Assembly: GCA_031548835.1 (NCBI GenBank)
Contig: JAVBQS010000019.1
Coordinates: 2,445-66,444, forward strand
DNA: 64,000 nucleotides
From: Spirochaetia bacterium
GTDB taxonomy: Bacteria > Spirochaetota > Spirochaetia > CADAEX01
Direction: 5' to 3'
Part shown: positions 3,222 through 38,438 of the stretch, piece after piece
How the letters are laid out: every line of letters begins with the position of its first letter
Position numbering within the stretch: position 1 is the stretch's first letter
Program-made: the position numbers and the translations under genes
Notes under the pieces: generated by a model
Databases searched by the model: none
What the model saw: only the letters and a program-made list of their open reading frames with translations
What the model was told of the DNA's origin: nothing

Positions 3222-4181
3222 ATGGTATGGATTCAATTCCTTATTGTTTCAGTAATTGTCGTAGTTTTCGGCTATATTATTGCAACCCAGGCAGATAAGC
3301 TTGCTGAAGCAAAAAATTTTGGAAAAGGACTTGTAGGATTTATACTTCTTGGATTTACAACATCAATACCGGAACTAATATCTACGCTATCCTCAACTAT
3401 TATTCTTAATAATCCGCTTATGGGCTCCGGAAACATAATTGGCAGTAATAATGCAAATATGTTAATTCTTTTTGTTTCATTCTTAATGGTAAAAAGCCTT
3501 AGGAAAAAAAATGGAAAACATGACGGAGAAAGCCTTGTTTCTCTTTCTTTCTGTTTAATTATAACAACTATTTTTATGATAGCTGTTATTTTATCAGGAA
3601 AACCTTTTGTTTTTACTGCTCCTGTTTATTGCTACTTAATATTATTTATATTTGCTGTAAGTATTTATGAATTATATAAAGTAGGGGCATTGGAAGTAGA
3701 GGAAAAAGAAAAAAAGAGTCTTCCGCCTTCCTTTTATATAGGTTTTGCTTTTTCCCTGGCTGTTCTTATTGTTGCAAGCTACTATTTATCTTTTGTTGTG
3801 GACAGAATAAGCAAGGAAACAGCTTTTGGAGCAACAGAATCAGGAGCTATTTTTCTTGCATGGTCAACATCTCTTCCTGAACTTGCTGTAACAGTATCTG
3901 CGCTTATAATCGGAAGCAGTGAGCTGGGTATAGGAAATATACTTGGCAGCAATATCTTTAATATGTTTGTAATTTCTGTTTCAGAAATATTTTCCAGAAG
4001 CAGTAAACCTGTATTTGATTTTGATAAAAGCCTTGTTTTTCTTTCTATGCTTCAGATACTTCTGCTGTCCATGCTTTTACTTGCTCTTTCGCAAAATAAG
4101 TTAGTGAAAATATGGAAAATATCTTTTATTCCTTTATGCGCGATTTTACTTTATGTAGGAGGAATGGTAATTATTTTTTAA
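3222..4181 (+). CDS. CaCA-family cation/Ca2+ exchanger (YrbG-like, two Na_Ca_ex alpha-repeat domains)
   Basis: Two internal repeats with 'GFTTSIPELISTLSS' and 'AWSTSLPELAVTVSALIIGSSELGIGNILGSNIFN'. Polytopic membrane protein. Confidence 0.8.
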   Translation: MVWIQFLIVSVIVVVFGYIIATQADKLAEAKNFGKGLVGFILLGFTTSIPELISTLSSTIILNNPLMGSGNIIGSNNANMLILFVSFLMVKSLRKKNGKHDGESLVSLSFCLIITTIFMIAVILSGKPFVFTAPVYCYLILFIFAVSIYELYKVGALEVEEKEKKSLPPSFYIGFAFSLAVLIVASYYLSFVVDRISKETAFGATESGAIFLAWSTSLPELAVTVSALIIGSSELGIGNILGSNIFNMFVISVSEIFSRSSKPVFDFDKSLVFLSMLQILLLSMLLLALSQNKLVKIWKISFIPLCAILLYVGGMVIIF

Positions 4182-4352: not shown

Positions 4353-4973
4353 ATGGAAGTCCAACTTAAGGAACTGATTGATAAAATTAAAAGCGACGGT
4401 GTAACTGTTGCTGAATCGAAAGCTGCTGAAATAATTAAGAATGCTGAAGCAAAGTCTCAGGAAATTATTGAAAAAGCTAAAAAAGAAGCTGCCCAGATTG
4501 TTTCAAAAGGCAAGGAAGATGCTCTTAGATCTGAAAATTCAGGAAAAGAGGCTCTCCGTCAGGCAGGAAGAGATCTTGTTTTAAATCTTCAATCTAAAAT
4601 AATAGATCTTTTTAATGTAATAATTAAAAACGAAGTTGCAGGCGCAATGGATGAAAAAGTATTAGGCGATGCAATTACAAAACTTATTACTTCATGGAAT
4701 GGGGATGTATCAAATCTTAAAATTCTTCTTTCTGAAAAAGATTATGAAAAAGTGGAAAAAGGTTTAAAAGCAAAATTAGCTGAACAGATTAAAAAAGGAT
4801 TTGAAATAAAACCTTCTAAACAGCTTGATGCAGGTTTTCTTGTTTCTGTGAAAGATGGTTCTGCATACCACAATTTTTCAGCTGAAGGAATCGCAGAGGT
4901 GCTTTCAGAATATTTAAACCCCAGGCTTTCAGCTCTGCTTGAAGAAGGGGTCAAGGGAAAAGCGGGGGCATAA
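4353..4973 (+). CDS. atpE: V-type ATP synthase subunit E
   Basis: 206 aa, Lys/Glu/Ala-rich helical N-terminus ('AEIIKNAEAKSQEIIEKAKKEAAQI') typical of V/A-type subunit E. First gene of the operon. Confidence 0.85.
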   Translation: MEVQLKELIDKIKSDGVTVAESKAAEIIKNAEAKSQEIIEKAKKEAAQIVSKGKEDALRSENSGKEALRQAGRDLVLNLQSKIIDLFNVIIKNEVAGAMDEKVLGDAITKLITSWNGDVSNLKILLSEKDYEKVEKGLKAKLAEQIKKGFEIKPSKQLDAGFLVSVKDGSAYHNFSAEGIAEVLSEYLNPRLSALLEEGVKGKAGA

Positions 4974-4976
4974 GCC

Positions 4977-5531
4977 TTGGCAAATCAGTATTACTATTTA
5001 GTTTCTTCTCTTCCAATGCTCTCTTATGATATGGAAAAGTCCATGTCTGAGGAAGAATTTTTTGATTCTTGCGAATCAATATTAACTGAAAAAGATTATA
5101 AAACTGTTAAAAATTCCAGAATTATTCCTTTAGAAGAAAAACCTGCAAATCAGGTTCTGGAAAAATGGAACAACTGGGAGAGAAGCCTCAGAAATGAACT
5201 TGTAAAAATGAGGGCAGGCAAAAAAGGGCAGGATAGTGAAAAATATGTTTCTGCCGGAGGGCTTGAGACAGGAACAGCCGAAGTTGCCCGCGAAGCTTTT
5301 CAAGCTTCAATGCCGCTTGATGCTGAATCAATTCTTAACAAAGCAAGATGGGACTATCTTGAAATGCTTGAAGCAGGACACTATTTTGATCTTGGCAAAA
5401 TTATTATCTATTTTTTAAAGCTTCAAATCCTGCAAAGAAAATTACAGATCAATAAAGAAAAAGGAAAAGCTGCTTTTGCGGAAATTTATTCCAGCATTCA
5501 CGGCAAAAACAACCAGCAGAAAAGCAGCTGA
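4977..5531 (+). CDS. Conserved small protein of spirochaete-type V-ATPase operons (function unknown, possibly C-like accessory subunit)
   Basis: Probable TTG start 3 nt after the atpE stop. Its position between atpE and atpA matches the E-X-A-B-D-I-K arrangement. Ends with TGA. Confidence 0.55.
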   Translation: MANQYYYLVSSLPMLSYDMEKSMSEEEFFDSCESILTEKDYKTVKNSRIIPLEEKPANQVLEKWNNWERSLRNELVKMRAGKKGQDSEKYVSAGGLETGTAEVAREAFQASMPLDAESILNKARWDYLEMLEAGHYFDLGKIIIYFLKLQILQRKLQINKEKGKAAFAEIYSSIHGKNNQQKSS

Positions 5532-5650
5532 TGGCTGGTTAATTAATTATTATTAAAATATATATCTTTACAAACTGAAAATAGATGTTTGTAATTTTTG
5601 GAATTTATAGAAAGAACAGGGATGAGGAATATTTGTTGTAGGGGTATTTT

Positions 5651-7435
5651 ATGGCGGATATAAAGAGTACAGGTAAGGTTGTCGGCGTAAACGGCAACAT
5701 GGTAACTATCGAATTTGAAGGCGAAGTTCTGCAAAATGAAGTAGGTTATGTTCAGGTAGGCGCAGCTGAAGGAAAAAACAGCCTTAAATCAGAAGTTATT
5801 AGAATAAAAGGAAACAGGGCAGACATGCAGGTCTTTGAAATGACCCGCGGCATAGGTATTGGAGATAGTGTAGAACTTACAGAAAACCTTCTTGCAGTTA
5901 CTCTAGGCCCTGGTCTTTTGGGACAGGTTTTTGACGGTCTTCAAAACCCTCTTCCAAAACTTGCAGAAAAGGAAGGATTCTTTCTTAAAAGAGGTGTTTA
6001 TTTAAACCCGCTTCCTGATAAAAAATGGGATTTTACACCTTCTGTAAAACAGGGCGACACAGTAACAAGAGGCGATTCTTTGGGAACAGTTCCTGAAGGA
6101 ATTTTCTCGCACCAGATAATGGTTCCTTTCAATATGTATGACACATATAAGGTTAAATCAATTGCAGGAAAAGGTTCATACTCGGTAAATGATAAAATTG
6201 CTGAAATTGAAGATTCAAAAGGAAAAGTTTTTCCTCTTACAATGAAATTTCAGTGGCCTGTAAAAAGAGCAGTTGATGCCTATGCAGAAAGACTTAAACC
6301 TGTTGACCCAATGATTACAAAGTTAAGACTTATAGATACATTTTTTCCTGTAGCAAAAGGCGGTACATATTGTACTCCAGGTCCTTTCGGCGCAGGCAAA
6401 ACAGTTTTACAGCAGATAACAAGCCGAAATGCAGAAGTAGATATAGTAATTATTGCTGCATGCGGTGAAAGAGCCGGAGAAGTAGTAGAAACACTTAAAG
6501 AGTTTCCTGAGCTTGCTGACCCAAGAACAGGCAGATCTCTTATGGAAAGAACAATAATAATATGTAATACAAGCTCCATGCCTGTTGCAGCAAGAGAAGC
6601 TTCTGTATATACAGCAGTAACTCTGGCCGAATATTACAGACAGATGGGACTTGATGTTCTTCTTCTTGCAGACTCAACATCAAGATGGGCGCAGGCAATG
6701 AGAGAAATGTCTGGACGTCTTGAGGAGATTCCCGGCGAGGAAGCTTTCCCTGCATACCTTGAGTCTGTTATAGCTTCTTTCTATGAAAGGGCAGGACTTG
6801 TAAGACTTAAAAGCGGAAAAAAAGGTTCTGTAACAATAGGCGGAACAGTAAGCCCTGCAGGCGGTAACTTTGAAGAGCCAGTTACCCAGGCTACACTTAA
6901 AGTAGTAGGAGCTTTCCACGGCCTCTCAAGAGAGAGATCAGATGCAAGAAAATATCCTGCAATAGATCCTCTTACAAGCTGGAGCAAATATAAAACATCT
7001 CTTGATGAAGAAAGAACAGAATATGCAAGAAATGTGCTTGTTAAGGGAAGCGATGTTGCGCAGATGATGAAGGTAGTAGGCGAGGAAGGAACAAGCACTG
7101 CTGACTATATTACCTATCTTAAAAGCGATTTTCTTGATGCTGTTTATATGCAGCAGAACTCTTTTGACCCTGTTGATAACTCTGTTTCACTTGAAAGACA
7201 AAAACATATTTTTGAAATAATATTTAAAATTCTTGGAATAATTTTTGATTTCCAGACAAAAGATGAAGCAAGACAGTATTTTAACCAGTTAAGGCAGCTT
7301 TTCCTTGATTACAATGGAACAGGTTGGCAGACCGATGAATTCAAGGCAAAAGAAAAAGAACTTCTTGAATTGATTTCCTCAAAACAGAAAGGTATTGAGG
7401 AAAATGCAGCAGCCATGCTGGAAAATACAAAGTAA
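5651..7435 (+). CDS. atpA: V-type ATP synthase catalytic subunit A
   Basis: 594 aa. Walker A 'GPFGAGKT'. The non-homologous insert region and overall A-subunit architecture are present. Confidence 0.95.
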   Translation: MADIKSTGKVVGVNGNMVTIEFEGEVLQNEVGYVQVGAAEGKNSLKSEVIRIKGNRADMQVFEMTRGIGIGDSVELTENLLAVTLGPGLLGQVFDGLQNPLPKLAEKEGFFLKRGVYLNPLPDKKWDFTPSVKQGDTVTRGDSLGTVPEGIFSHQIMVPFNMYDTYKVKSIAGKGSYSVNDKIAEIEDSKGKVFPLTMKFQWPVKRAVDAYAERLKPVDPMITKLRLIDTFFPVAKGGTYCTPGPFGAGKTVLQQITSRNAEVDIVIIAACGERAGEVVETLKEFPELADPRTGRSLMERTIIICNTSSMPVAAREASVYTAVTLAEYYRQMGLDVLLLADSTSRWAQAMREMSGRLEEIPGEEAFPAYLESVIASFYERAGLVRLKSGKKGSVTIGGTVSPAGGNFEEPVTQATLKVVGAFHGLSRERSDARKYPAIDPLTSWSKYKTSLDEERTEYARNVLVKGSDVAQMMKVVGEEGTSTADYITYLKSDFLDAVYMQQNSFDPVDNSVSLERQKHIFEIIFKILGIIFDFQTKDEARQYFNQLRQLFLDYNGTGWQTDEFKAKEKELLELISSKQKGIEENAAAMLENTK

Positions 7436-14233: not shown

Positions 14234-14414
14234 AAAATTATGAAAAATATCATGCTGGTGTATAAAAAATAATACACTGGCATGAACAATATTCCAATCC
14301 ACTTTTATTAAAAATAATAAATCCTTATACCGCAAGTAATTATTTAATTAAAAAAACTTTTATAGATGGCACGGTAATTGCATGTTAGTTAGCAAATCTA
14401 TATTGAGGTGATTT

Positions 14415-15038
14415 TTGAATAATTTACTTAGTGTTATTACAACAAAAACTTTTCCCGCAAACATTTTGGAATTAAGAACAGAGTTGTTTAGAAAAAGCAT
14501 TCATATGCTTATTGCTTTAGTTCCAATGATAGCTGCAATTGATAAAGGAATTGCGCTTGCATTGCTTGGCGGCGGAGCAATAATATACACTTATTCAGAA
14601 ATGTTAAGAGCCAGAGGGCTTAGCCTTATATTTATTTCAGGCATTAAGAATTTTGCATTAAGAGAAAAAGATAAAAATAGTTTTGCAGGAGGGCCTGTAA
14701 CACTTGCTCTTGGCGCAATGATTGCTCTTCTTTTTTATCCATCTGATGTGGCAAAAATTGCAATCTATGCTCTTGCTTTTGGCGATGGTTTTGCAAGTCT
14801 TATAGGAAAAACTTTTGGTGTAACTAAAATACCTTTTACAGGGGGAAAAAGCTTTGAAGGAAGTTTTGCATGCTTTTTTGCAATATTGATTTCATCTTTT
14901 AAAATTACATCAAATATTGGAGTATCTTTTACAACAGCTCTTGTTGTTACAGTTGTGGAAGCTTTTCCGCTTGGCGACTATGATAACATTATTATTCCCA
15001 TAGTTGCAGGTTCCACTGCTTTAATAATGATTGGCTAG
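14415..15038 (+). CDS. CTP-dependent polyprenol (dolichol/phytol) kinase-like membrane protein (CdsA superfamily)
   Basis: Probable TTG start after SD 'gaggtga'. Multi-TM protein with 'AFGDGFASLIGKTFG' (GDGxAxxIGxxxG motif of the VTE5/Sec59 kinase family). Confidence 0.45.
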   Translation: MNNLLSVITTKTFPANILELRTELFRKSIHMLIALVPMIAAIDKGIALALLGGGAIIYTYSEMLRARGLSLIFISGIKNFALREKDKNSFAGGPVTLALGAMIALLFYPSDVAKIAIYALAFGDGFASLIGKTFGVTKIPFTGGKSFEGSFACFFAILISSFKITSNIGVSFTTALVVTVVEAFPLGDYDNIIIPIVAGSTALIMIG

Positions 15039-24394: not shown

Positions 24395-25735
24395 TTATCT
24401 TTCTGCCAACGGAATATATTTTTTCCTTGGCGCAACATTTTTATATGCCGGGCGTATGATTCTTCCGCCATTTACAAGCTCTTCTATTCTATGGGCAGAC
24501 CAGCCTGCTATTCTTGCTATTGCAAATATTGGAGTATAAAGCGCTGTAGGAATATTTAGCATTTTATAGACAAAGCCTGAGTAAAAATCAACATTTGCAG
24601 AGCCTCTTTTGTCTGAATGTTTTTCCTGAGATATAATTTGCGGCGCAATTTTTTCAACTTTGGTAAAAAGGTTAAATTCTGCCTCAAGCCCTTTTTCTGC
24701 AGCAAGATCTGAAGCTTTTTCTTTCAATAATATTGCCCTGGGATCTGAAAGTGTATAGATTGCATGGCCGTATCCATATATAAGGCCTGCTTTGTCAAAA
24801 ACTTCTTTATTAAGAATTCTGCGGAGGTAATTTCCTATCTCATCTTCATCATCCCAATCTTTTATATTTTCCATCATATTTTCCATCATATTGAGAGCTT
24901 TCTTGTTTGCTCCTCCATGCCTGGGGCCTTTCATGGAGCACAATGCTGCTGCAATTGCAGCATAGGTGTCTGTATGGCTTGATGTTACCACATGATTTGT
25001 AAAAGTAGAGTTATTTCCTCCGCCATGTTCTGCGTGAAGAACAAGCGCAAGGTCAAGAACCTGTGCTTCCAGTTTTGTATATTTACTGTCGCTGCGTATA
25101 AGGTGTAAAAGATTTTCTGCTGTGCCTATTCCAGATTGCGGTTTATGGATATAAAGGCTGTTGCCTTCATGATAATGGGATTTTGCCTGGTAGCCGTAGG
25201 CTGCCATTGTCGGGAATCTTGCTATAAGCTCTATACATTGTCTTAATACATTTTCAATACTTATATCATCTGCATTTTTATCATAAGAATATGAAACAAG
25301 CACGCTTCTTGCAAGCTTGTTCATTATATCGCGGCTTGGAGCCCTCATTATCATATCTTCTGCAAAACCGTCAGGCAGCTCCCTGTAGGAATCAAGAAGG
25401 CTGTTAAACTCATCAAGTTCGTTTTTTGAAGGCAGCTCGCCAAAAAGAAGAAAATAGGTAGTTTCTTCAAAGCCGTGCCTGTCTTCAGCTATCATTCCTT
25501 TTACAAGTTCAGTTATATTTACGCCTCTGTAAAGAAGCCTTCCCTCATCAGGCTGCATTTCTCCTTCATCAAAGACATAGCCGTGGACATCTCCTATTTC
25601 TGTAAGCCCTACAAGCACTCCTGACTCATCGCTGTTTCTAAGCCCTCTTTTTACATTATATCTGGTATATAAACTGGGATCTATTTTATTACTCAAAATC
25701 TTGTCTTTCATTTTTTCAATAAAATTTGCAGCCAT
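24395..25735 (-). CDS. gltA: Citrate synthase
   Basis: All the catalytic motifs are present: 'GPRHGGAN', 'GYGHAIYTLSDPRA', 'NVDFYSG', 'ARIAGWSAHRIEE'. 446 aa. Confidence 0.9.
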   Translation of the reverse strand: MAANFIEKMKDKILSNKIDPSLYTRYNVKRGLRNSDESGVLVGLTEIGDVHGYVFDEGEMQPDEGRLLYRGVNITELVKGMIAEDRHGFEETTYFLLFGELPSKNELDEFNSLLDSYRELPDGFAEDMIMRAPSRDIMNKLARSVLVSYSYDKNADDISIENVLRQCIELIARFPTMAAYGYQAKSHYHEGNSLYIHKPQSGIGTAENLLHLIRSDSKYTKLEAQVLDLALVLHAEHGGGNNSTFTNHVVTSSHTDTYAAIAAALCSMKGPRHGGANKKALNMMENMMENIKDWDDEDEIGNYLRRILNKEVFDKAGLIYGYGHAIYTLSDPRAILLKEKASDLAAEKGLEAEFNLFTKVEKIAPQIISQEKHSDKRGSANVDFYSGFVYKMLNIPTALYTPIFAIARIAGWSAHRIEELVNGGRIIRPAYKNVAPRKKYIPLAER

Positions 25736-26186: not shown

Positions 26187-27083
26187 ATGGATCGGAAACC
26201 ATTGATCCAAAGGAAAACTGCAATCTGTTACAAAACAGAAGAAAAAACAGTTTTACGCGGTTTTAATGTAAGTGATCTTGCTGAAGCAGGCTACACTTTC
26301 ATAGATGCTCTGTATGTTCTTTTTCAGGGAAGAATTCCTGCTGAAAATGAGAAAAAAATGCTTGATTATGAGGTAGCAGAGTTTCTTGAACACTCAATGT
26401 CACCTTCAGCTGTATCTGCTATAGCTGTTATTAACGGACATCCAATGCTTCCAGCTGCTGTTGCATCATCAATCATGACTTTTGGTGGAGCTCACGGCCC
26501 AGGTGCAGCACACGGATATATGATGAAAAAATACCTTGACAGAGCTGCTGACACAGGAAAAAGCATCAAAGAAGTTGCTATTGAATGTGTAAACGAGTAT
26601 ATGGATGCAGGTCTTGCTGTAATGGGTATGGGACAGCCGCAGCACCTTGACGGTGACCCAAGAGCAGAACCCACACACCTCAAACAGGAAGAACTTGGAG
26701 TTACAGGTGTATATCTCCAGTTCCAGAGAGCTCTTGAAGATAAATTCTATGCAAGAAGAAAAGAAGAAGGCAGAGCTTATGTTGCTGTAAACATGGTTGG
26801 CGCTGGTAATACTGCTCTTTCTGACATGGGATTTGCTCCAAATGCAGGATGGGTTATCGGTTGTGTAACAAGAGGTTACAGCTGTGCTTGTCACGCTCTC
26901 TATACACTTAAAAAAGGAAGAGCATGGGCAGCATCAAGAAGCGAGCCAATGGTTCAGATGCTTGACCTTGCAATGATTAAATATGTAGGGCCGGAAGACA
27001 GGGAAGTTCCTCCTATGTCAGAAAGACAGGCATATGCAAAAAAACAGTTAGAATCAGGAGAATATAAGAAATGGGCGCTGTAA
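26187..27083 (+). CDS. Citrate-synthase-family protein, subunit 1 of a putative heteromeric enzyme (retains the His264-equivalent and the DPRA motif)
   Basis: 'GGAHGPGAAHG' aligns with 'GPRHGGAN', followed about 35 aa later by 'GMGQPQHLDGDPRAE' (the GxGHxxY His is replaced by Gln). The C-terminal 'GWVIGCVTRGYSCACHALY' matches the 'ARxxGWxAH' motif. The N-terminus matches the CS region 'LRGFNVSDLAEAGYTFIDALYVLFQGRIP'. Strong SD 'aggagg'. Confidence 0.7.
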   Translation: MDRKPLIQRKTAICYKTEEKTVLRGFNVSDLAEAGYTFIDALYVLFQGRIPAENEKKMLDYEVAEFLEHSMSPSAVSAIAVINGHPMLPAAVASSIMTFGGAHGPGAAHGYMMKKYLDRAADTGKSIKEVAIECVNEYMDAGLAVMGMGQPQHLDGDPRAEPTHLKQEELGVTGVYLQFQRALEDKFYARRKEEGRAYVAVNMVGAGNTALSDMGFAPNAGWVIGCVTRGYSCACHALYTLKKGRAWAASRSEPMVQMLDLAMIKYVGPEDREVPPMSERQAYAKKQLESGEYKKWAL

Positions 27084-28144
27084 AATATTCAGATGACAGA
27101 ATTGCACAAATGAAATTTGCAAAAAGGCCAACTCTCGGTAACCTTGCAGATCCAAGATTAAAATATGACTATACAAACAGAGAGATTGGAACACTTCCTC
27201 CAGATAACAGGGAAAGTTTTAAATGGGTTTCTGAAGTAGCATACAAAAATATCCACAGAATCGTAGCTAGAGGTTATGATACAACAGAAATTGTAGAAGC
27301 TGGTTACGGAGTATGCGAAGTACTCTTTATAGACTATCAGTCAAGAATTCCTCTTGTTGAAGAGAAAGAAGTTCTTGATTACTGCATGGTTTTAGGACTT
27401 GAAGACGGCCTTTCAAACCCAGCTCTTCTTGCAAGACTTATTGCAAGAGGTAAATCTTACGTAACACAGGCTTGCGGCGGTTCAGTGCTTGCTTTCGGAC
27501 ATGCATATGCTTCTTACGATGCAACAGGAAAAATGATTGTTAAATATGCTTCAAAAGTAGAAGAAGGAATGAGCCTTACAGATGCTGCAAAGCTTTGTAT
27601 AAAAGAATGCCAGAAAGAAGACCATTTTGGTATTTCTACTCTTTATGCTAAAGATGCTGCGCCAAAAAAACTTCTTGACTTTGCAGAGAAAAAACTCTCA
27701 GGCGTAAAGAAACTCAGATATGTAAACTTCATGAAAGAACTCGACAAACAGGCTAAAGCAGCGCTTGGTGCTAATTATGGCGTAGACATGATTGGCGCTC
27801 TTTCAGCAGCAATGCTTGAACTCGAATTCTCAAGTGATGGAGCATGGTGTTTAATGGCTGTTACAAGATCATTTGCAGCAGGCGCTCATGCAATTGAAGA
27901 AATGGAAAGAGAGACACTTGATGTTCTTGGCCAGACACTTACTCCAAAAGATTGGTACGACGGTCCGGCAGACAAACCAGTTCCTTCACAGAAAGAAAGA
28001 TCAGGCTTCAAAGGCGGCCAGGCTCAGACAGCTGCTGAATGGAGAGCTCTCTGGAAAAAGAATGAAGCACTCAAAGGTTCTGGATATTCAATCCCATTTG
28101 TTGTTGAAGATCCAAGAAAAGCTAGTGTAACAAAAAAGAAATAA
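27071..28144 (+). CDS. Citrate-synthase-family protein, subunit 2 (paralog; retains the His305- and Asp362-equivalents)
   Basis: 'AFGHAYASYDATG' aligns with 'GYGHAIYTLSDPRA', 'GANYGVDMIG' with 'ANVDFYSG', and 'AVTRSFAAGAHAIEEME' with 'ARIAGWSAHRIEE'. The N-terminus is paralogous to ORF 26187 ('RGYDTTEIVEAGYGVCEVLFIDYQSRIP'). It overlaps the upstream gene by 13 nt. Confidence 0.7.
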   Translation: MGAVKYSDDRIAQMKFAKRPTLGNLADPRLKYDYTNREIGTLPPDNRESFKWVSEVAYKNIHRIVARGYDTTEIVEAGYGVCEVLFIDYQSRIPLVEEKEVLDYCMVLGLEDGLSNPALLARLIARGKSYVTQACGGSVLAFGHAYASYDATGKMIVKYASKVEEGMSLTDAAKLCIKECQKEDHFGISTLYAKDAAPKKLLDFAEKKLSGVKKLRYVNFMKELDKQAKAALGANYGVDMIGALSAAMLELEFSSDGAWCLMAVTRSFAAGAHAIEEMERETLDVLGQTLTPKDWYDGPADKPVPSQKERSGFKGGQAQTAAEWRALWKKNEALKGSGYSIPFVVEDPRKASVTKKK

Positions 28145-32057: not shown

Positions 32058-32187
32058 AAAATTAATAATAACAGTGCAGAATATAGATGTAAAGCAGTGC
32101 CATCTTTATTAATTAAACTGCTGCATTAAAAAATTATATATTTTGAAATAACAATAAAAGCCAAGTTTAAAGTTATTTTAGTAATTA

Positions 32188-32358
32188 GGCCTGTTCGACA
32201 ACCTGGTTAGAAGTTATTTTGTGAATACCAAATAAGTACTAATTTGGAGACAATGTATGATTTTTTACAGGTAGTTCATAATCTTAAAGGTTTTATTTTA
32301 TAACCCCGGCATGACTTACCATACCGGGGTTACCATTTTTAGGTTGTCGAACAGGTCT
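32188..32358. repeat. 171-bp element bounded by 15-17-bp perfect inverted repeats (CCTGTTCGACAACCT), containing a small ORF and a strong internal hairpin. MITE-like, or a structured leader/ncRNA.
   Basis: The left IR is at 32190-32204 and the right IR at 32341-32355 (aggttgtcgaacagg). The internal 9-bp hairpin taaccccgg/ccggggtta at 32301-32332 is followed by 'ccattttt'. A 16-codon ORF (MYDFLQVVHNLKGFIL, 32253-32303) has GGAG 3 nt upstream. Confidence 0.6.
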
Positions 32359-32408
32359 ATTATATAAAATATATACATTTATATTTATATGGCTTAAAAT
32401 AATAAACT

Positions 32409-34169
32409 ATGGGGTATTTCTTAAAATACAGAATTAATATTAAAATTTTTATATCTTTTATCTTTATAATTCTTGTCACAACCGTTACTTCTCTGTTAAT
32501 CAACTACTTGTTATTTAAGGATTCTGTTAAAAAATCAAATATAATAAGACTGCAGGACAGCACCACTGCTTACTATAATGAAATCAAATTTACCGAAGAT
32601 ATATGCCTTAAAGCAGTAAGCACGTTATCCAAAGATAATACTCTTTCTGATTTAATACTGTTAAAAAATACAGATACTCTTGGTAAAATACTTGGCAATT
32701 ATTACAAAATGGGATTGTTTGATATTGTTGAAATTGAAAATCCTGACGGAACTGTTTTTATAAGAGCTCACGATCCTGATCAAAGCGGAGATCTTAAAGC
32801 AGAACAAAATATTGTAAAAGAAGGACTTGCAGGAAAAATAGCTGTCAGTTATGAAAGCGGTAAATCAGGCATTGCGATAAGAGCAGTCGCCCCTCTTGAG
32901 AAAGACGGCAAAATAATAGGACTTCTGATGCTTGGAAAACTTTTCTCGGAAGAACTTGTGGCAAATATGAAAAAGCTTACAGGGCTTGATAATGGAATAT
33001 ACTGGAAAGATAAAAAAATAATTTCTACCTATGATGGAATTCAAACTATTTATAATGATAAAATGGAAAAACTTTTGGAAAATGGCTCTGTCATATTTGA
33101 TGAAGTAATTGGCAAAGATAGATATTATTTTATGATCAAGGCTTTATATACAGATGATCAGCGCTACTGGGGAGCAGTAACTTTATTTATTAAAGAAAAA
33201 GATAATGCAGGCTATCTTTCATATATAAAAAGCATTCTGTTTTTTATGGTAATGATAGGTTTTTTTCTTTCTTTTTTAGCTTATCTTCTTCTTGCAAATG
33301 ATATAAACAATTCTTTAAGTAAAATTATTGATAGAATCAATAATTTTAACATAGATGACAGTTCTCAAATAATAGATGTAAAAGCAAATGATGAATTTAA
33401 AATAATTGCAGACAGTATAAATAATCTTTCAAAAAAAATATATAAATATAACCAGCAAATAGTAAAGCTTCAGGATGACATGATAAGGTCTGCAAAACTG
33501 GCAGTTGTCGGTCAGCTTTCGGCAGGACTTGCCCATGAAATAAGAAATCCGTTGAGCTCTATAAAAATGATGTCGCAGATAATAAAGGCCAGATATTTGC
33601 ATAATAAGGAAGGCCTTGAAGAAATTAATACAGTACTTGAAGAAATTGAAAGAATTGATAATTTAATTAAGGATTTGCTGGAATTTTCAAAACCAGGGCC
33701 TATGTATTTTGCGCAGCATGATATTAATAAATTAATTCTAAATACTTTAAATAAATACAGATATAATATTGAACATCAAAAAATAACAGTTGAATATAAT
33801 TTTGAAAAAAAATTGCCTCTAATATCTGTGGATAGTGAAAAAATACAAATCTGTTTTATAAACTTTATTGTTAATGCAATTCAGGCAATGGCTGAAGGCG
33901 GAAAACTTACAATAAATACAATGCTGCAAAATGATAAAATAGTTATAGAATTTAAAAATAACGGGCCTTTAATTTCTGAAAAAGATATAGATAAAATATT
34001 TGAACCATTTTTTACTACAAAAAAAGAAGGCACAGGATTGGGCCTTGCTCTTACAAAATTAATAATTGAAAGACATTATGGAAAAATATTTTCTTCAAGC
34101 AATGAAAAAGAAACAGTTTTCAGCATAATCCTTCCTTTGGTAAATAATAATATTATTCCAATTGTATAA
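32409..34169 (+). CDS. Sensor histidine kinase with periplasmic (Cache-like) sensor domain
   Basis: Two TM helices flank a roughly 250-aa extracytoplasmic domain. H-box 'HEIRNPLSSI'. HATPase motifs 'GTGLGLALTK'. Confidence 0.85.
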   Translation: MGYFLKYRINIKIFISFIFIILVTTVTSLLINYLLFKDSVKKSNIIRLQDSTTAYYNEIKFTEDICLKAVSTLSKDNTLSDLILLKNTDTLGKILGNYYKMGLFDIVEIENPDGTVFIRAHDPDQSGDLKAEQNIVKEGLAGKIAVSYESGKSGIAIRAVAPLEKDGKIIGLLMLGKLFSEELVANMKKLTGLDNGIYWKDKKIISTYDGIQTIYNDKMEKLLENGSVIFDEVIGKDRYYFMIKALYTDDQRYWGAVTLFIKEKDNAGYLSYIKSILFFMVMIGFFLSFLAYLLLANDINNSLSKIIDRINNFNIDDSSQIIDVKANDEFKIIADSINNLSKKIYKYNQQIVKLQDDMIRSAKLAVVGQLSAGLAHEIRNPLSSIKMMSQIIKARYLHNKEGLEEINTVLEEIERIDNLIKDLLEFSKPGPMYFAQHDINKLILNTLNKYRYNIEHQKITVEYNFEKKLPLISVDSEKIQICFINFIVNAIQAMAEGGKLTINTMLQNDKIVIEFKNNGPLISEKDIDKIFEPFFTTKKEGTGLGLALTKLIIERHYGKIFSSSNEKETVFSIILPLVNNNIIPIV

Positions 34170-34181
34170 AAGAGGTGTTGT

Positions 34182-34529
34182 ATGGCATCAATACTTGTAA
34201 TAGATGATGATAAAGGCATTCAAAAAAGTTTTGCTAACCTATTGAGTAAAGAACACGAGGTTTTAAGCGGATATAACGGAAAAGAAGGGCTTGAAATTCT
34301 TGAAGCCAGGGAAGCTGATATGGTTTTTCTTGACTATCAAATGCCGGGAAGCGACGGCATTGAAGTATTAAAAATAATAAAAAAGAAAGAACCTGAATTG
34401 CCTGTAGTCATGATTACAGCGCATGGCAGTTTTGAAACAATAATAGAAGCAATATCTTTAGGCGCATATGATTATATAGAGAAACCTCTTGATATTGATA
34501 AAATTAATATTATCGTAAAAAGAGCATGA
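34182..34529 (+). CDS. Response-regulator receiver domain (N-terminal part of an interrupted NtrC-type activator)
   Basis: 'ILVIDDDKGI', 'DMVFLDYQMPGSDG' and the conserved Lys region 'VVMITAHGS'. It ends with TGA at 34527-34529, in frame with the next ORF. Confidence 0.85.
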   Translation: MASILVIDDDKGIQKSFANLLSKEHEVLSGYNGKEGLEILEAREADMVFLDYQMPGSDGIEVLKIIKKKEPELPVVMITAHGSFETIIEAISLGAYDYIEKPLDIDKINIIVKRA

Positions 34530-34541
34530 GAATCCTGCAGG

Positions 34542-35570
34542 ATGAACAAATATGTGAATGCTGTGCAATCTGAACAGATAAAAAACTATGGATTTAAAAA
34601 AATTATAGGAAATTCAACCGCAATACAGGAGGTTTTTAAATCTATAGGAAGGCTTGTTAATAATGATGTTATTGTTCATATAGCAGGAGAAAGCGGGACA
34701 GGAAAAGAGTTGGTTGCACATGCGCTGCACTTTAATGGCAAGAGAAAAAATGAACCTTTTATTGCTGTTAACTGTTCCGGCCTTATAGAATCTATTTTGG
34801 ACAATGAACTTTTCGGCCATGAACCGCAGGCTTTTACAGGCGCTGTATCGCTTAAAATAGGAAAATTTGAAGCAGCAGGAGAAGGAACAATATTTCTTGA
34901 TGAAATTGGAGATATGCCTCTTACAATACAAACAAAATTCCTGAGAATTCTTCAGGAAAATGAATTTCACAGAATGGGTGGACTTAAAAATATTAAATTA
35001 AAGGCAAGAGTTATAACTGCAACAAACAGAAATCTTTTTGAAGAAGTACAGGCAGGCCGCTTTCGGGAAGATCTTTATTACAGAATAAATGTTGCAAAAA
35101 TAATTTTGCCGCCCCTTCGGGAAAGAAAAGAAGATATTCCTGAACTTACAGATTTTTTTGTTCAAAAAATTTCAAGAAAAATTAACAAAAGTTTTATATC
35201 TGTGCCTGAGCAAATAAAAAATGAATTTATAAATTATGATTGGCCTGGAAATGTAAGAGAGCTTGAAAATCTAATTACAAGTATGTGTATAAATGCAAAA
35301 GGAGCTGTTCTTGCATTAGACGATATGCCGGCTACTGTTTTAAAATCATCAAGAGAAGATTGTCTTTCCAAAGTTATAGATAAATTTTATATGGAAAATA
35401 AACATTCAAAAAATCTGCTTCCTCTGCTTTATGAAAAACTTGAAAAAATAATGATAGATAAAATTGCACATGAGCAGAACAATAATAAATCTGCCATGGC
35501 AGAAATACTTGGGATAAGCAGGGTTACGCTTACAAAAAAAATGAATCAGGATGAAAAAAGCCATAATTAA
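34542..35570 (+). CDS. Sigma-54 interaction (AAA+) domain plus Fis-type HTH (C-terminal part of an interrupted NtrC-type activator)
   Basis: Walker A 'GESGTGKE'. The GAFTGA-like 'GHEPQAFTGA'. 'VRELEN'. C-terminal HTH 'SAMAEILGISRVTLTKKM'. It is in the same frame as the receiver ORF, separated by TGA plus 4 codons. Confidence 0.85.
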   Translation: MNKYVNAVQSEQIKNYGFKKIIGNSTAIQEVFKSIGRLVNNDVIVHIAGESGTGKELVAHALHFNGKRKNEPFIAVNCSGLIESILDNELFGHEPQAFTGAVSLKIGKFEAAGEGTIFLDEIGDMPLTIQTKFLRILQENEFHRMGGLKNIKLKARVITATNRNLFEEVQAGRFREDLYYRINVAKIILPPLRERKEDIPELTDFFVQKISRKINKSFISVPEQIKNEFINYDWPGNVRELENLITSMCINAKGAVLALDDMPATVLKSSREDCLSKVIDKFYMENKHSKNLLPLLYEKLEKIMIDKIAHEQNNNKSAMAEILGISRVTLTKKMNQDEKSHN

Positions 35571-35761
35571 AAAATGCTTTTGTAAAAAAGCTTATCAATA
35601 GTGATAAATTGCTTTACATATTTTTTATCTTTTGGAAAAAACTGCCCATTTGTTTGGACAGTTTAATTAAAATTTATTTTAATTATTTATAATATAACTA
35701 TTTATTTCTAAATATCATTTTCAAAGATATTATACAACTTGGCATATTTTATGCATATATA

Positions 35762-36382
35762 ATGGCAGATAGTAAAATGTTTAAGCATTTATTCAAAAAA
35801 AGAGTAGGGCTGGAAAATAAAATTATTGAAGAGATTGATATAGTTCTCTCACTCATTGAAACTATGGGCAAAACAGCAACTGAGCCAAATTCTTTTATTA
35901 TTGCAAATAATATACTTGAACTTGAAACAGTTTTAGATAAGCAGGAACAAGAATTTATAGAACAGATCAACAAGCAAAACCATCTGCCTGATTGCTGGGA
36001 GGAGCTATTTAAAATAAGTAATAGTTTAAAACAACTGTTTAAACAGCTTTCTATGGCTTTTAATAAAATTCAGATATTTAAAGATAATGAATCTTATTTT
36101 TCATTCTATGAGCATGAAAAAAGATTTCTTTTTAATATTAAAAATTTTATTTATGAATATGTTAAAAACCGCAAATATGCATATCAGCTTGTGGTAAATA
36201 ATCAGCATGAACTTAAAGATTTTATGAAAATATATTATACAAAACTTAATGCTGCATTTGGCGGCAGCCCAGAGCATTCTGATATAAAAATAAAAATGCT
36301 GGAGATTTTTCAGCAAATAAATAAAATAAACGAAGAGGTGCAGGAAACAGTAACTAAAATATATGTTAGTTCAGGTGTTTGA
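35762..36382 (+). CDS. Hypothetical all-helical protein (possibly a PhoU/DUF47-like accessory protein of the downstream Na/Pi transporter)
   Basis: 206 aa, predicted helical, no diagnostic motif. Placement upstream of a Na/Pi cotransporter is the only basis for the PhoU-like suggestion. Confidence 0.4.
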   Translation: MADSKMFKHLFKKRVGLENKIIEEIDIVLSLIETMGKTATEPNSFIIANNILELETVLDKQEQEFIEQINKQNHLPDCWEELFKISNSLKQLFKQLSMAFNKIQIFKDNESYFSFYEHEKRFLFNIKNFIYEYVKNRKYAYQLVVNNQHELKDFMKIYYTKLNAAFGGSPEHSDIKIKMLEIFQQINKINEEVQETVTKIYVSSGV

Positions 36383-36641
36383 TTATATAAAAATAAAAAT
36401 ATATATCGTTATTTTTATAGGCTTGTTTACCTATTGATATTTTGCCATAAAAGATATTTAATTGTTAAATATTTTTTAGAGAATAGTTAGGTAAATGTTA
36501 GCAAATAGTTAATTTAAATATAAATTATTTCAAACAGTAAATTATTTAAAAACAGTTTTAAAAATACTGTAATAAATAATATATATACATGAAACATAGA
36601 GTCTAGTGTTTCTGTAAAAAATAGAAGAGGGGAGATAATAA

Positions 36642-38312
36642 ATGAGTGTCTGGAATGTGTTTACACTGATAGGAGGGCTTGCTGTTTTTCTCTATGGAAT
36701 GATGGTAATGAACAGAAACCTCACATCAATAGCAGGTGAGAAAATGAAATCCATAATGCTCACACTGACTAAGAGCAGGCCAAGAGGTTATATTACTGGC
36801 CTTGGTATTACAATGATTAATCAGTCATCGTCAGCAACAACAGTACTTGAAGCTGCGCTTGTCGGTGCCGGATTAATGACTTTTCACCAGAGTGTTGCTG
36901 TTACTTTGGGTGCTGAGCTTGGTTCAACTTTCCTGGCACACATTGTAGCTTTTCCATCAATAACCAAATTTGCAGCTCTTATAATTGCCGGCGGTTTTTT
37001 CGCTTCTATTATGCTTAAAAAACAGAAAGCTATTAATGCAGCTCTTGCTATTTTTGGTTTTGGTCTTTTATTTATGGGAATGGACATGATGTCTGAATCT
37101 CTTAAACCATTAAGAACATATCAGCCTTTCCTGGATCTTATGATAAAAGTTGAAACTCCTATCCTTGGTATACTTTTGGGCCTTGTTTTTACAATGGTAG
37201 TTCAGTCATCTGGCGCAACAAGTGGCCTTACCATAGCTATGGCAATGGCAGGAACAATAAGTCTTGAACAGGCTGTTCCAATTAACCTTGGCGCTGCAGT
37301 AGGAACATGTATTACCGCAATTCTAGGAAGCCTTGCATTAAACTGGGAAGCTAAAAGATCTGCCTATATCCATGTAATGTTCCAGGTTATAGGTACTATT
37401 TGGGTTTATATACTTTTAATGATACGTATGCCAAACGGAGAAAGAGTTTTTATCTGGCTTGTAAAATGGGTTACAGCAACTGTTTTCAGAACAGATAATC
37501 TTGGAAGAGAAATTGCAACAGGTTTTACACTTATGCCTGTAATTAACCATATACTTTTATTTGCTGTTCCAAAATTTCTTGATACAGTTGTTGCTATTTT
37601 TGAGAAAATATTCCCGCCGAAAGAGAGCGAAAAGCCTTTCAGTGTAAAATATCTGCAGGAGCAGCTTATTGACGGAAGTGTTGAAATAGCTCTTGAAATG
37701 GCTAAAAAAGAAATTCTTATTGATGCAGACCTTGTAAAAAGCATGTTTGAAAAGGTTGATCTGGCATTTAAACATAAGGATATGAAATTAATAAATCAGA
37801 TTTCAGAAACAGACTCAAAAGTCGATCTTCTTCATAAAACCATAATTCTATTTCTTGCAAGAATATCGCGCAAAGAACTTGGCCAGGATGAATCCAAGAG
37901 AAGTATGAACTATCTTTATATAGAGAATGAACTTGAATCTATTGGAGATGTTATTGATAAAAACCTTATGGTAATGGCTAAAAAGATGATAAATCTTGGA
38001 CTTAATTTTTCAGAACAGGGCGGCAAAGAACTTACCGAACTTCATGGAAAAGTAATGGAAAATATTAATAGAATGGTTAAAGCTCTTGCAGAAGAAAATG
38101 CTGAGCTTGCAAAAGAAATAAAAGAAGTATATGCAGATGTTAATGAGACAAAATATCAGCTTTCACATATTGAAAGGCTCCATAAAGGCCTTAAAGTATC
38201 AATTGATACATCATCTGTGCATCTTGATGTAATAAACTATTATGCAAGAATAAATGAACATGTTGCTTATATTGCAGACAGGATAATCTGGCTTACAAAG
38301 AAGCATGTTTAA
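36642..38312 (+). CDS. Na+/phosphate cotransporter (NptA/Na_Pi_cotrans family) with C-terminal PhoU-like domain
   Basis: 'GGLAVFLYGMMVMNRNL' and a repeated transporter half. The C-terminal roughly 200 aa are helical and PhoU-like. 556 aa. Confidence 0.85.
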   Translation: MSVWNVFTLIGGLAVFLYGMMVMNRNLTSIAGEKMKSIMLTLTKSRPRGYITGLGITMINQSSSATTVLEAALVGAGLMTFHQSVAVTLGAELGSTFLAHIVAFPSITKFAALIIAGGFFASIMLKKQKAINAALAIFGFGLLFMGMDMMSESLKPLRTYQPFLDLMIKVETPILGILLGLVFTMVVQSSGATSGLTIAMAMAGTISLEQAVPINLGAAVGTCITAILGSLALNWEAKRSAYIHVMFQVIGTIWVYILLMIRMPNGERVFIWLVKWVTATVFRTDNLGREIATGFTLMPVINHILLFAVPKFLDTVVAIFEKIFPPKESEKPFSVKYLQEQLIDGSVEIALEMAKKEILIDADLVKSMFEKVDLAFKHKDMKLINQISETDSKVDLLHKTIILFLARISRKELGQDESKRSMNYLYIENELESIGDVIDKNLMVMAKKMINLGLNFSEQGGKELTELHGKVMENINRMVKALAEENAELAKEIKEVYADVNETKYQLSHIERLHKGLKVSIDTSSVHLDVINYYARINEHVAYIADRIIWLTKKHV

Positions 38313-38321
38313 TTTTTAAAC

Positions 38322-38349
38322 GAGGGCATCTTTTTGATGCCCTTTTTTA
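38322..38349 (+). terminator. Rho-independent terminator of the Na/Pi cotransporter gene
   Basis: Stem gggcatc/gatgccc with loop ttttt, followed by T6. Confidence 0.75.
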
Positions 38350-38438
38350 TCCCGGCATAGTACCGCCACAATGGTTATTGCCCTAAAATCTACGGAACCG
38401 CTGATTAAATTGACTCTAATCATCGGTTTCATATTACT

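Follow-up and report, generated by a model that had tools for sequence, protein, structure and literature searches.

A probable recent nonsense mutation in an NtrC1-like sigma-54 activator gene located next to a Na/Pi cotransporter-PhoU gene of a spirochaete

Two neighboring ORFs at positions 34,182–34,529 and 34,542–35,570 of the analyzed DNA (a stretch of 64 kb, referred to below as the window) were found to be parts of a single ancestral gene (34,182–35,570, + strand), which encoded a 462-aa NtrC-family, NtrC1-like sigma-54 activator and is interrupted at codon 116. The interruption is probably a very recent, lineage-specific nonsense substitution, Leu116 to TGA, in a formerly normal one-chain activator; we infer that the base call is true.

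Organization of the locus

The gene located directly upstream of the interrupted regulator (32,409–34,169, + strand) encodes an intact sensor histidine kinase of 586 aa; a cognate kinase had been noted here in the first-pass annotation of the window. The domains dCache_3, HisKA and HATPase_c were assigned using Pfam. The kinase is 59–71% identical to its syntenic copies in the loci L001, L005, L007, L025 and L044 and, among the named equivalogs, is closest to AtoS and ZraS.

Positions 32,174–32,371 hold an element of about 198 nt that is bounded by imperfect terminal inverted repeats of 31 nt (perfect core CCTGTTCGACAACCT). It contains an internal GC-rich hairpin (32,301–32,332), and its predicted RNA fold has an energy of −68.3 kcal/mol (z −7.4). 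This element is present as a single copy in the window, Rfam gave no match to it, and the NUDIX–kinase intergenic region of L001, L005 and L007 lacks it; it therefore resembles a MITE-like insertion, located immediately before the conserved promoter-proximal block of the kinase gene.

The first ORF of the regulator (34,182–34,529, + strand; 115 aa) is preceded by a strong ribosome binding site, AAGAGGTG, with a Shine–Dalgarno (SD) duplex of −7.1 kcal/mol. It encodes a receiver: Response_reg (PF00072) was matched by residues 4–110 with an E-value of 2.4e-29 in Pfam, and residues D8, D9, D51 and K101 correspond to invariant columns of the alignment. The ORF ends with TGA (34,527–34,529, + strand), which, according to the codons of the orthologues and the alignment column, stands in place of a leucine codon. 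This stop is followed by four codons, GAA TCC TGC AGG (E S C R; 34,530–34,541, + strand), which are conserved coding sequence in the orthologues.

The second ORF (34,542–35,570, + strand; 342 aa) starts at a conserved internal methionine, Met121, and encodes the AAA+, lid and Fis-type HTH parts of the protein, namely Sigma54_activat (PF00158, E 1.7e-62), AAA_lid_14 and HTH_8 (PF02954, E 2.5e-10) in Pfam. The motifs GESGTGKE, DEIG and xAFTGA are invariant in the alignment, and Walker A and B are intact in the window protein. The GAFTGA loop reads QAFTGA across the whole orthologue group, with the first G replaced by Q.

The window gene does not place the three domains on one polypeptide, and the TGA at 34,527–34,529 is the cause. 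The protein obtained by reading through this codon was aligned end to end with single-chain homologues (E about 1e-247), so the colinearity of the two ORFs is not due to chance. It had been claimed earlier that the two ORFs share one frame, that they are separated by only TGA and four codons, and that read-through would give a typical NtrC-like protein. All of this was borne out: the ATG at 34,542 is in frame and lies 12 nt after the stop, and the 462-aa product aligns over its full length with the fused homologues.

Comparison with known sigma-54 activators

The closest solved structures are those of Aquifex aeolicus NtrC1 (4L4U, E 8e-89; 1NY5, E 1e-87), a negatively regulated group I bEBP with the same order of receiver, AAA+ sigma-54 domain and Fis-type HTH. 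The alignment with NtrC1 covers residues 3–455 of the window protein (E 8e-89). The AlphaFold model used was that of P0001, the closest intact orthologue, which is 83% identical to the window protein and has the same numbering (mean pLDDT 83.6). In this model, alpha5 and the linker form one continuous helix at residues 105–136, with a pLDDT of about 60 at residues 121–140. Judging from the model, residue 116 is within this alpha5–linker helix, the one that NtrC1 uses to hold inactive dimers (PMC4878744). The break had been placed in the inter-domain linker by the first-pass annotation. It does fall between the domains, but the model predicts a continuous helix at 105–136 and no loose linker there.

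The long continuous alpha5–linker helix predicted for residues 105–136 resembles the helix of NtrC1 (PMC4878744), and the linker is similar in length, being 2 residues longer. A long structured linker has been tied to negative control by the receiver, with deletion of the receiver leading to constitutive activity (PMC10696123, PMC4878744), and the GHG motif of the receiver is a second indicator of negative control (PMC10696123). As regards these two features of the NtrC1/DctD class, the helix is present in the P0001 model and the GHG motif is missing, since the window protein reads ITAHG and the orthologues read AHG, AYG or AFG. The differences from NtrC1 are thus AHG instead of GHG, the QAFTGA loop, and the chain being cut at residue 116 by TGA.

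The repaired protein also matches the families NtrC/GlnG (TIGR01818), AtoC (NF008469) and ZraR (NF007689) over the full length, with scores below the NCBIfam cut-offs (442.3 vs. 558.6, 417.9 vs. 714 and 331.4 vs. 760, respectively). The targets of NtrC, AtoC and ZraR are nitrogen, acetoacetate and zinc genes, whereas the apparent target here is a Na/Pi-PhoU transporter. The 342-aa ORF has the same AAA+ and HTH architecture as the PspF-like receiver-less bEBPs. However, PspF-type genes stand alone, with their own translation signals and control in trans, whereas the window ORF is the tail of a broken gene without a dedicated ribosome binding site.

Enhancer, promoter and target operon

A perfect dyad, TGTAAA-N5-TTATCA-N4-TGATAA-N5-TTTACA, was found 11 nt past the stop codon of the regulator (35,581–35,618) and is a putative enhancer (UAS). 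There is a single copy of its core in the window, and each orthologous locus covering the region likewise has one, 139–178 nt upstream of a −24/−12 element. In the window, this element is a sigma-54 type promoter, TGGCAT-ATTTTA-TGCA (35,740–35,755, + strand), which starts 148 nt past the point where the dyad core begins. All seven loci of the alignment agree in the TGGCA and TGCA columns, and the element is always located before Na/Pi-PhoU genes. In other loci, the region of the dyad and promoter is situated at 4005–4159 (L001), 4429–4597 (L005), 4449–4642 (L025), 831–992 (L027) and 6487–6660 (L044).

The first ORF past the sigma-54 promoter, orf206 (35,762–36,382, + strand), has no family match. 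Homologues of it were found in L025 (57%, two tandem copies) and L044 (40%), and the remaining syntenic loci L001, L002, L005, L007 and L027 gave no match. Since the first ATG of orf206 is only 7 nt past the −12 element, the true start may be the ATG at 35,777, which would give a very short leader. The next gene (36,642–38,312, + strand) encodes a Na/Pi cotransporter-PhoU fusion of 556 aa, which was assigned using Pfam and is present by synteny in every orthologous locus.

The conserved gene order, namely LysR, NUDIX, kinase, regulator, sometimes orf206-like ORFs and then the Na/Pi cotransporter-PhoU fusion, was observed in termite-gut Spirochaetaceae bins and metagenome contigs, the bin names matching the MAG set of PMC7024585. 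Judging by sequence and spacing, the dyad and the −24/−12 element have the classical layout of enhancer-binding-protein control, and the conservation of this layout makes the Na/Pi-PhoU operon the probable target of the regulator.

Another near-consensus sigma-54 promoter motif, TGGCACGGTAATTGCA, is present at 14,367–14,382 of the window (+ strand), about 120 nt upstream of an ORF at 14,505–15,038 (177 aa, no Pfam family).

The stop column and the ancestral codon

The read-through protein was used as the query in the search for homologues, which gave thousands of matches. Among the best 120 listed, more than 100 proteins with an identity of 43–83% are each encoded as one fused protein of 448–483 aa; this count leaves out P0011 (the window's own 342-aa half), fragments at contig ends and one frameshifted copy. 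In the column of the stop, Leu is present in seven of the eight closest relatives and Ile in the eighth, with Leu or Val further out. Trp was found in 0 of 28 aligned homologues, and no relative in the alignment has TGA or Cys at this position. The orthologous codon is TTG in L001, L002, L006 and L007, CTA in L005 and GTC in L025. As L002 and L006 are two assemblies of one gene (protein P0007), TTG is represented by three distinct genes.

On this comparison, Leu is the ancestral residue at codon 116. TGA is one step from TTA, and TTA codons are 2.6 times as frequent as TTG in the 64-kb window, which makes TTG → TTA → TGA a parsimonious and likely path, with a synonymous first step and TTA as the presumed intermediate. 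It had been proposed earlier that a Trp codon, TGG, mutated to TGA. A single transition would suffice for such a change, but this origin is extremely improbable given the ancestral Leu (TTG, CTA or GTC), the lack of a Trp column and the absence of TGG from the orthologous DNA. A path from TTG through TGG to TGA would also pass through a non-conservative Trp in the helix.

In the orthologues, the spacer codons and the following Met conform to the pattern E-[STA]-x-[KR]-M and are ordinary conserved coding positions. The SD duplex at ATG 34,542 is −2.7 kcal/mol, and 28% of internal in-frame ATGs are equal or better. A search for an internal sigma-70 promoter for the second ORF gave consensus matches at the level of chance (33 vs. 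27.4 ± 4.5). A natural split into two genes, which was also among the earlier proposals, would be expected to appear as orthologues consistently encoded in two parts; the uncut listed homologues are fused. Natural gene fission is contradicted by the sequence comparison, because the close relatives are all fused, the spacer and Met are conserved as coding sequence, and the SD signal is at background.

In the more distant locus L044 (contig ctg12861l), the regulator (5001–6412) is split into 289 and 124 aa by homopolymer indels, and the PHO4 transporter (1476–2419) is split into 152 and 143 aa. This broken orthologue (P0109) was considered as a case of recurrent inactivation and was rejected as such in view of several homopolymer indels and the split PHO4 on the same contig. 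The breaks in L044 are most likely noise of the long-read consensus and not biology.

Age of the lesion

The dN/dS ratio (Nei–Gojobori) of the window gene against four orthologues was 0.11–0.16 where dS was measurable, with both halves alike, and that among the intact orthologues was 0.085–0.12; with dS near saturation (about 0.9), a brief period of relaxed selection would not be visible in these values. At 2 otherwise invariant columns, the window protein deviates uniquely; the range in its close relatives is 0–4. By these values, purifying selection has acted on the regulator gene during essentially the whole of its divergence. Beside the broken gene, both the enhancer palindrome and the −24/−12 promoter are intact, which fits a young lesion. 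Taken with the intact catalytic residues, the low dN/dS ratio indicates that the stop is either very recent or an error. An old decaying pseudogene was considered and rejected on account of the single lesion, the dN/dS ratio of 0.11–0.16, the 2 unique deviations and the intact motifs.

The window gene is comparable to single-stop 'pseudo-pseudogenes' (PMC9122581, PMC7918605), which likewise have one premature stop in a conserved gene with low dN/dS; like them, it may have low-level expression by read-through. Unlike the pseudogenes of PMC7918605, its stop was found in no second genome, so the conservation by which that paper excludes errors is lacking here. A disrupted regulator is in itself ordinary, since bacterial genes that are intact apart from one premature stop are common.

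TGA usage, the palindrome and recoding

TGA terminates 9 of the 56 stop-to-stop ORFs of at least 150 aa in the window. When TGA was read as sense over the 64 kb, extra TGAs appeared only at gene edges or in antisense shadow frames, and no mid-gene TGA was found in the other real genes of the window. This stop usage excludes an alternative genetic code, TGA being a normal stop and the sole mid-gene TGA being the one in the regulator.

The 12-bp palindrome ATCCTGCAGGAT, reported earlier as beginning 2 nt past the stop, was found there (34,532–34,543) and is absent from all the orthologues. Base composition predicts about 29 perfect 12-bp palindromes in the window; there are 54, and at least six G/C are present in 11 of these. 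As RNA, ATCCTGCAGGAT forms a 4-bp stem (−2.8 kcal/mol, z −1.27), and shuffled sequences fold as well as the 64 nt past the stop (z −0.91). The palindrome is a lineage-specific chance by-product that depends on the codons TCC and TGC, both specific to the window. A SECIS-like or read-through element was considered and rejected, since the palindrome is missing in the orthologues and folds weakly. Only tRNA-Ala was detected in the search of the 64-kb window for tRNAs and Rfam families, with no tRNA-Sec or suppressor tRNA.

Programmed recoding, whether by selenocysteine insertion, by read-through stimulated by the palindrome or by an alternative code, is hardly conceivable and already largely refuted. 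Of the stop codons, UGA is the most leaky (PMC7918605), and there is indeed a small hairpin 2 nt past the stop, but this hairpin has only a 4-bp stem of −2.8 kcal/mol in a region with a fold z of −0.9, it has no counterpart in the orthologues, and the relatives have no TGA/Cys column. In addition, TGA ends nine ordinary genes of the window and is absent within others, no tRNA that could decode it as Sec or suppress it is encoded in the window, and residue 116 is a buried-type hydrophobic position in a helix, not a catalytic site. The earlier suggestion of programmed read-through is contradicted on the same grounds: no relative has TGA at this site, other genes of the window use TGA as an ordinary stop, and there is no meaningful structure downstream.

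Sequence context and database searches

The window has a G+C content of 33.5% and is 90% coding. The other ORFs of the greedy gene set have no obvious break, and most of them have full-length Pfam matches (11 ORFs have none); thus, the assembly is not riddled with errors or pseudogenes. The lesion in the regulator is a substitution, unlike the homopolymer indels of the noisy contig L044.

Next to a full-length citrate synthase gene (24,395–25,735, minus strand), there are two adjacent ORFs at 26,187–28,144. The match of the 298-aa ORF to the Citrate_synt profile is confined to the C-terminal half (positions 166–352 of 357), and the 357-aa ORF has no family. Instead of a broken gene, this pair could represent citryl-CoA lyase/synthetase-like genes.

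The two halves of the regulator occur on only one NCBI contig of 76,963 bp. Exact look-ups of the 115-aa product, the 342-aa product, the kinase and the NUDIX protein found no record, and the same was true of the alternative product with a GTG start. Eight repaired alleles, which have L, W, C, S, R, G, I or V as residue 116, were looked up in a collection of 15 billion proteins, and none was found. A short query centered on the stop revealed no near-identical fragment, the best match being 68% identical.

Two Logan contigs, L045 (SRR23967709) and L046 (SRR23967707), were found via the Na/Pi-PhoU protein. They are 100% identical to the window at 36,142–38,423 and 36,486–38,423, respectively, which indicates that the strain is present in both runs. 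Both contigs stop short of the regulator and end at 38,423, and this shared end may be a break caused by coverage or strain variation. A literature search for the two run numbers found nothing.

Discussion

The ancestral activator and the upstream dCache histidine kinase would have formed a two-component system, in which the activator would bind the conserved palindromic enhancer located immediately past its own gene and would fire the sigma-54 promoter located before orf206 and the Na/Pi cotransporter-PhoU gene. Codon 116 would then have changed recently from TTG to TTA and to TGA. With the stop in place, the main product would be a free 115-aa receiver. The AAA+/HTH part could be made at a low level by two routes, namely leaky read-through of UGA, which would give the full-length protein (PMC7918605, PMC9122581), and reinitiation at Met121, 12 nt downstream, which would give a receiver-less activator. 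Such consequences for expression are what we infer from the arrangement of the ORFs. By analogy with receiver-deleted activators, the reinitiated product might, speculatively, be constitutively active. As the AAA+/HTH part could be made only at a low level, the locus would be a young pseudogene or hypomorph and not a designed feature.

Among the four explanations offered by the first-pass annotation, a nonsense mutation or pseudogene and a sequencing or assembly error stay credible, and a natural split and programmed read-through do not. In the second of the credible cases, TGA would be an artefact of sequencing, assembly or consensus calling, or a minor variant in a MAG consensus, and the organism would encode an intact 462-aa regulator with Leu116. 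The pristine state of the rest of the gene and of the regulatory DNA is consistent with this, as is the fact that the sequence is known from a single contig. Furthermore, the relatives are metagenome bins, in which consensus calls can mix strains, and the Logan contigs of the same strain break within the locus at 36,142 and 36,486, which may reflect low coverage or strain variation. A genuine nonsense mutation, for its part, would have required two steps from TTG, the two halves of the gene are seen on one NCBI contig only, and no near-identical fragment spans the site. Nevertheless, an artefact or minor variant is rather unlikely: substitution errors are rare in consensus assemblies, the other ORFs in the 64 kb carry no obvious lesion, which argues against an error-prone assembly, and no repaired allele is present in the 15-billion-protein collection. 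Bacterial genes often contain in-frame stops, TGA especially, and these stops are leaky (PMC7918605, PMC9122581). A real recent mutation is favored because the change is a substitution in a clean 64-kb sequence and because nonsense pseudogenes are common.

It is also quite improbable that the split is functional and has been retained because it uncouples the activator from the kinase. The lone receiver would then act as a phosphate sink or partner, and a receiver-less AAA+/HTH protein, produced by termination and reinitiation at Met121, would act constitutively on the Na/Pi-PhoU promoter in a PspF-like manner. The 12-nt distance between the stop and the ATG, the intact target promoter and enhancer, and NtrC1 as the best solved homologue are compatible with this possibility. 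The long alpha5–linker helix at residues 105–136 of the model points the same way, since such a helix is typical of negatively regulated activators that become constitutive after deletion of the receiver (PMC4878744, PMC10696123). However, the split is unique to the window genome, and none of the listed homologues, including 21 with at least 64% identity, is comparably split. The ATG codes for an internal Met that is conserved, its SD signal does not exceed background, there are no compensatory changes, and the receiver reads AHG in place of the GHG motif tied to negative regulation (PMC10696123). It would be highly improbable, too, that the TGA is both real and selected, with the reinitiated receiver-less product constitutively locking on the sigma-54-driven Na/Pi-PhoU phosphate-uptake operon. 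If this were true, the selected split would be a one-nucleotide route to the rewiring of a two-component system in a termite-gut spirochaete.

On the preferred reading, a recent nonsense mutation, the value of the finding is primarily one of annotation: the two ORFs should be described as a single sigma-54 response-regulator gene, disrupted by an internal stop at codon 116, and not as two genes. The surrounding module, consisting of the dCache kinase, the NtrC-like regulator, the dyad enhancer, the sigma-54 promoter and the Na/Pi-PhoU genes, is of modest interest, and its conservation suggests sigma-54/NtrC-type control of a phosphate transporter in termite-gut Spirochaetaceae.
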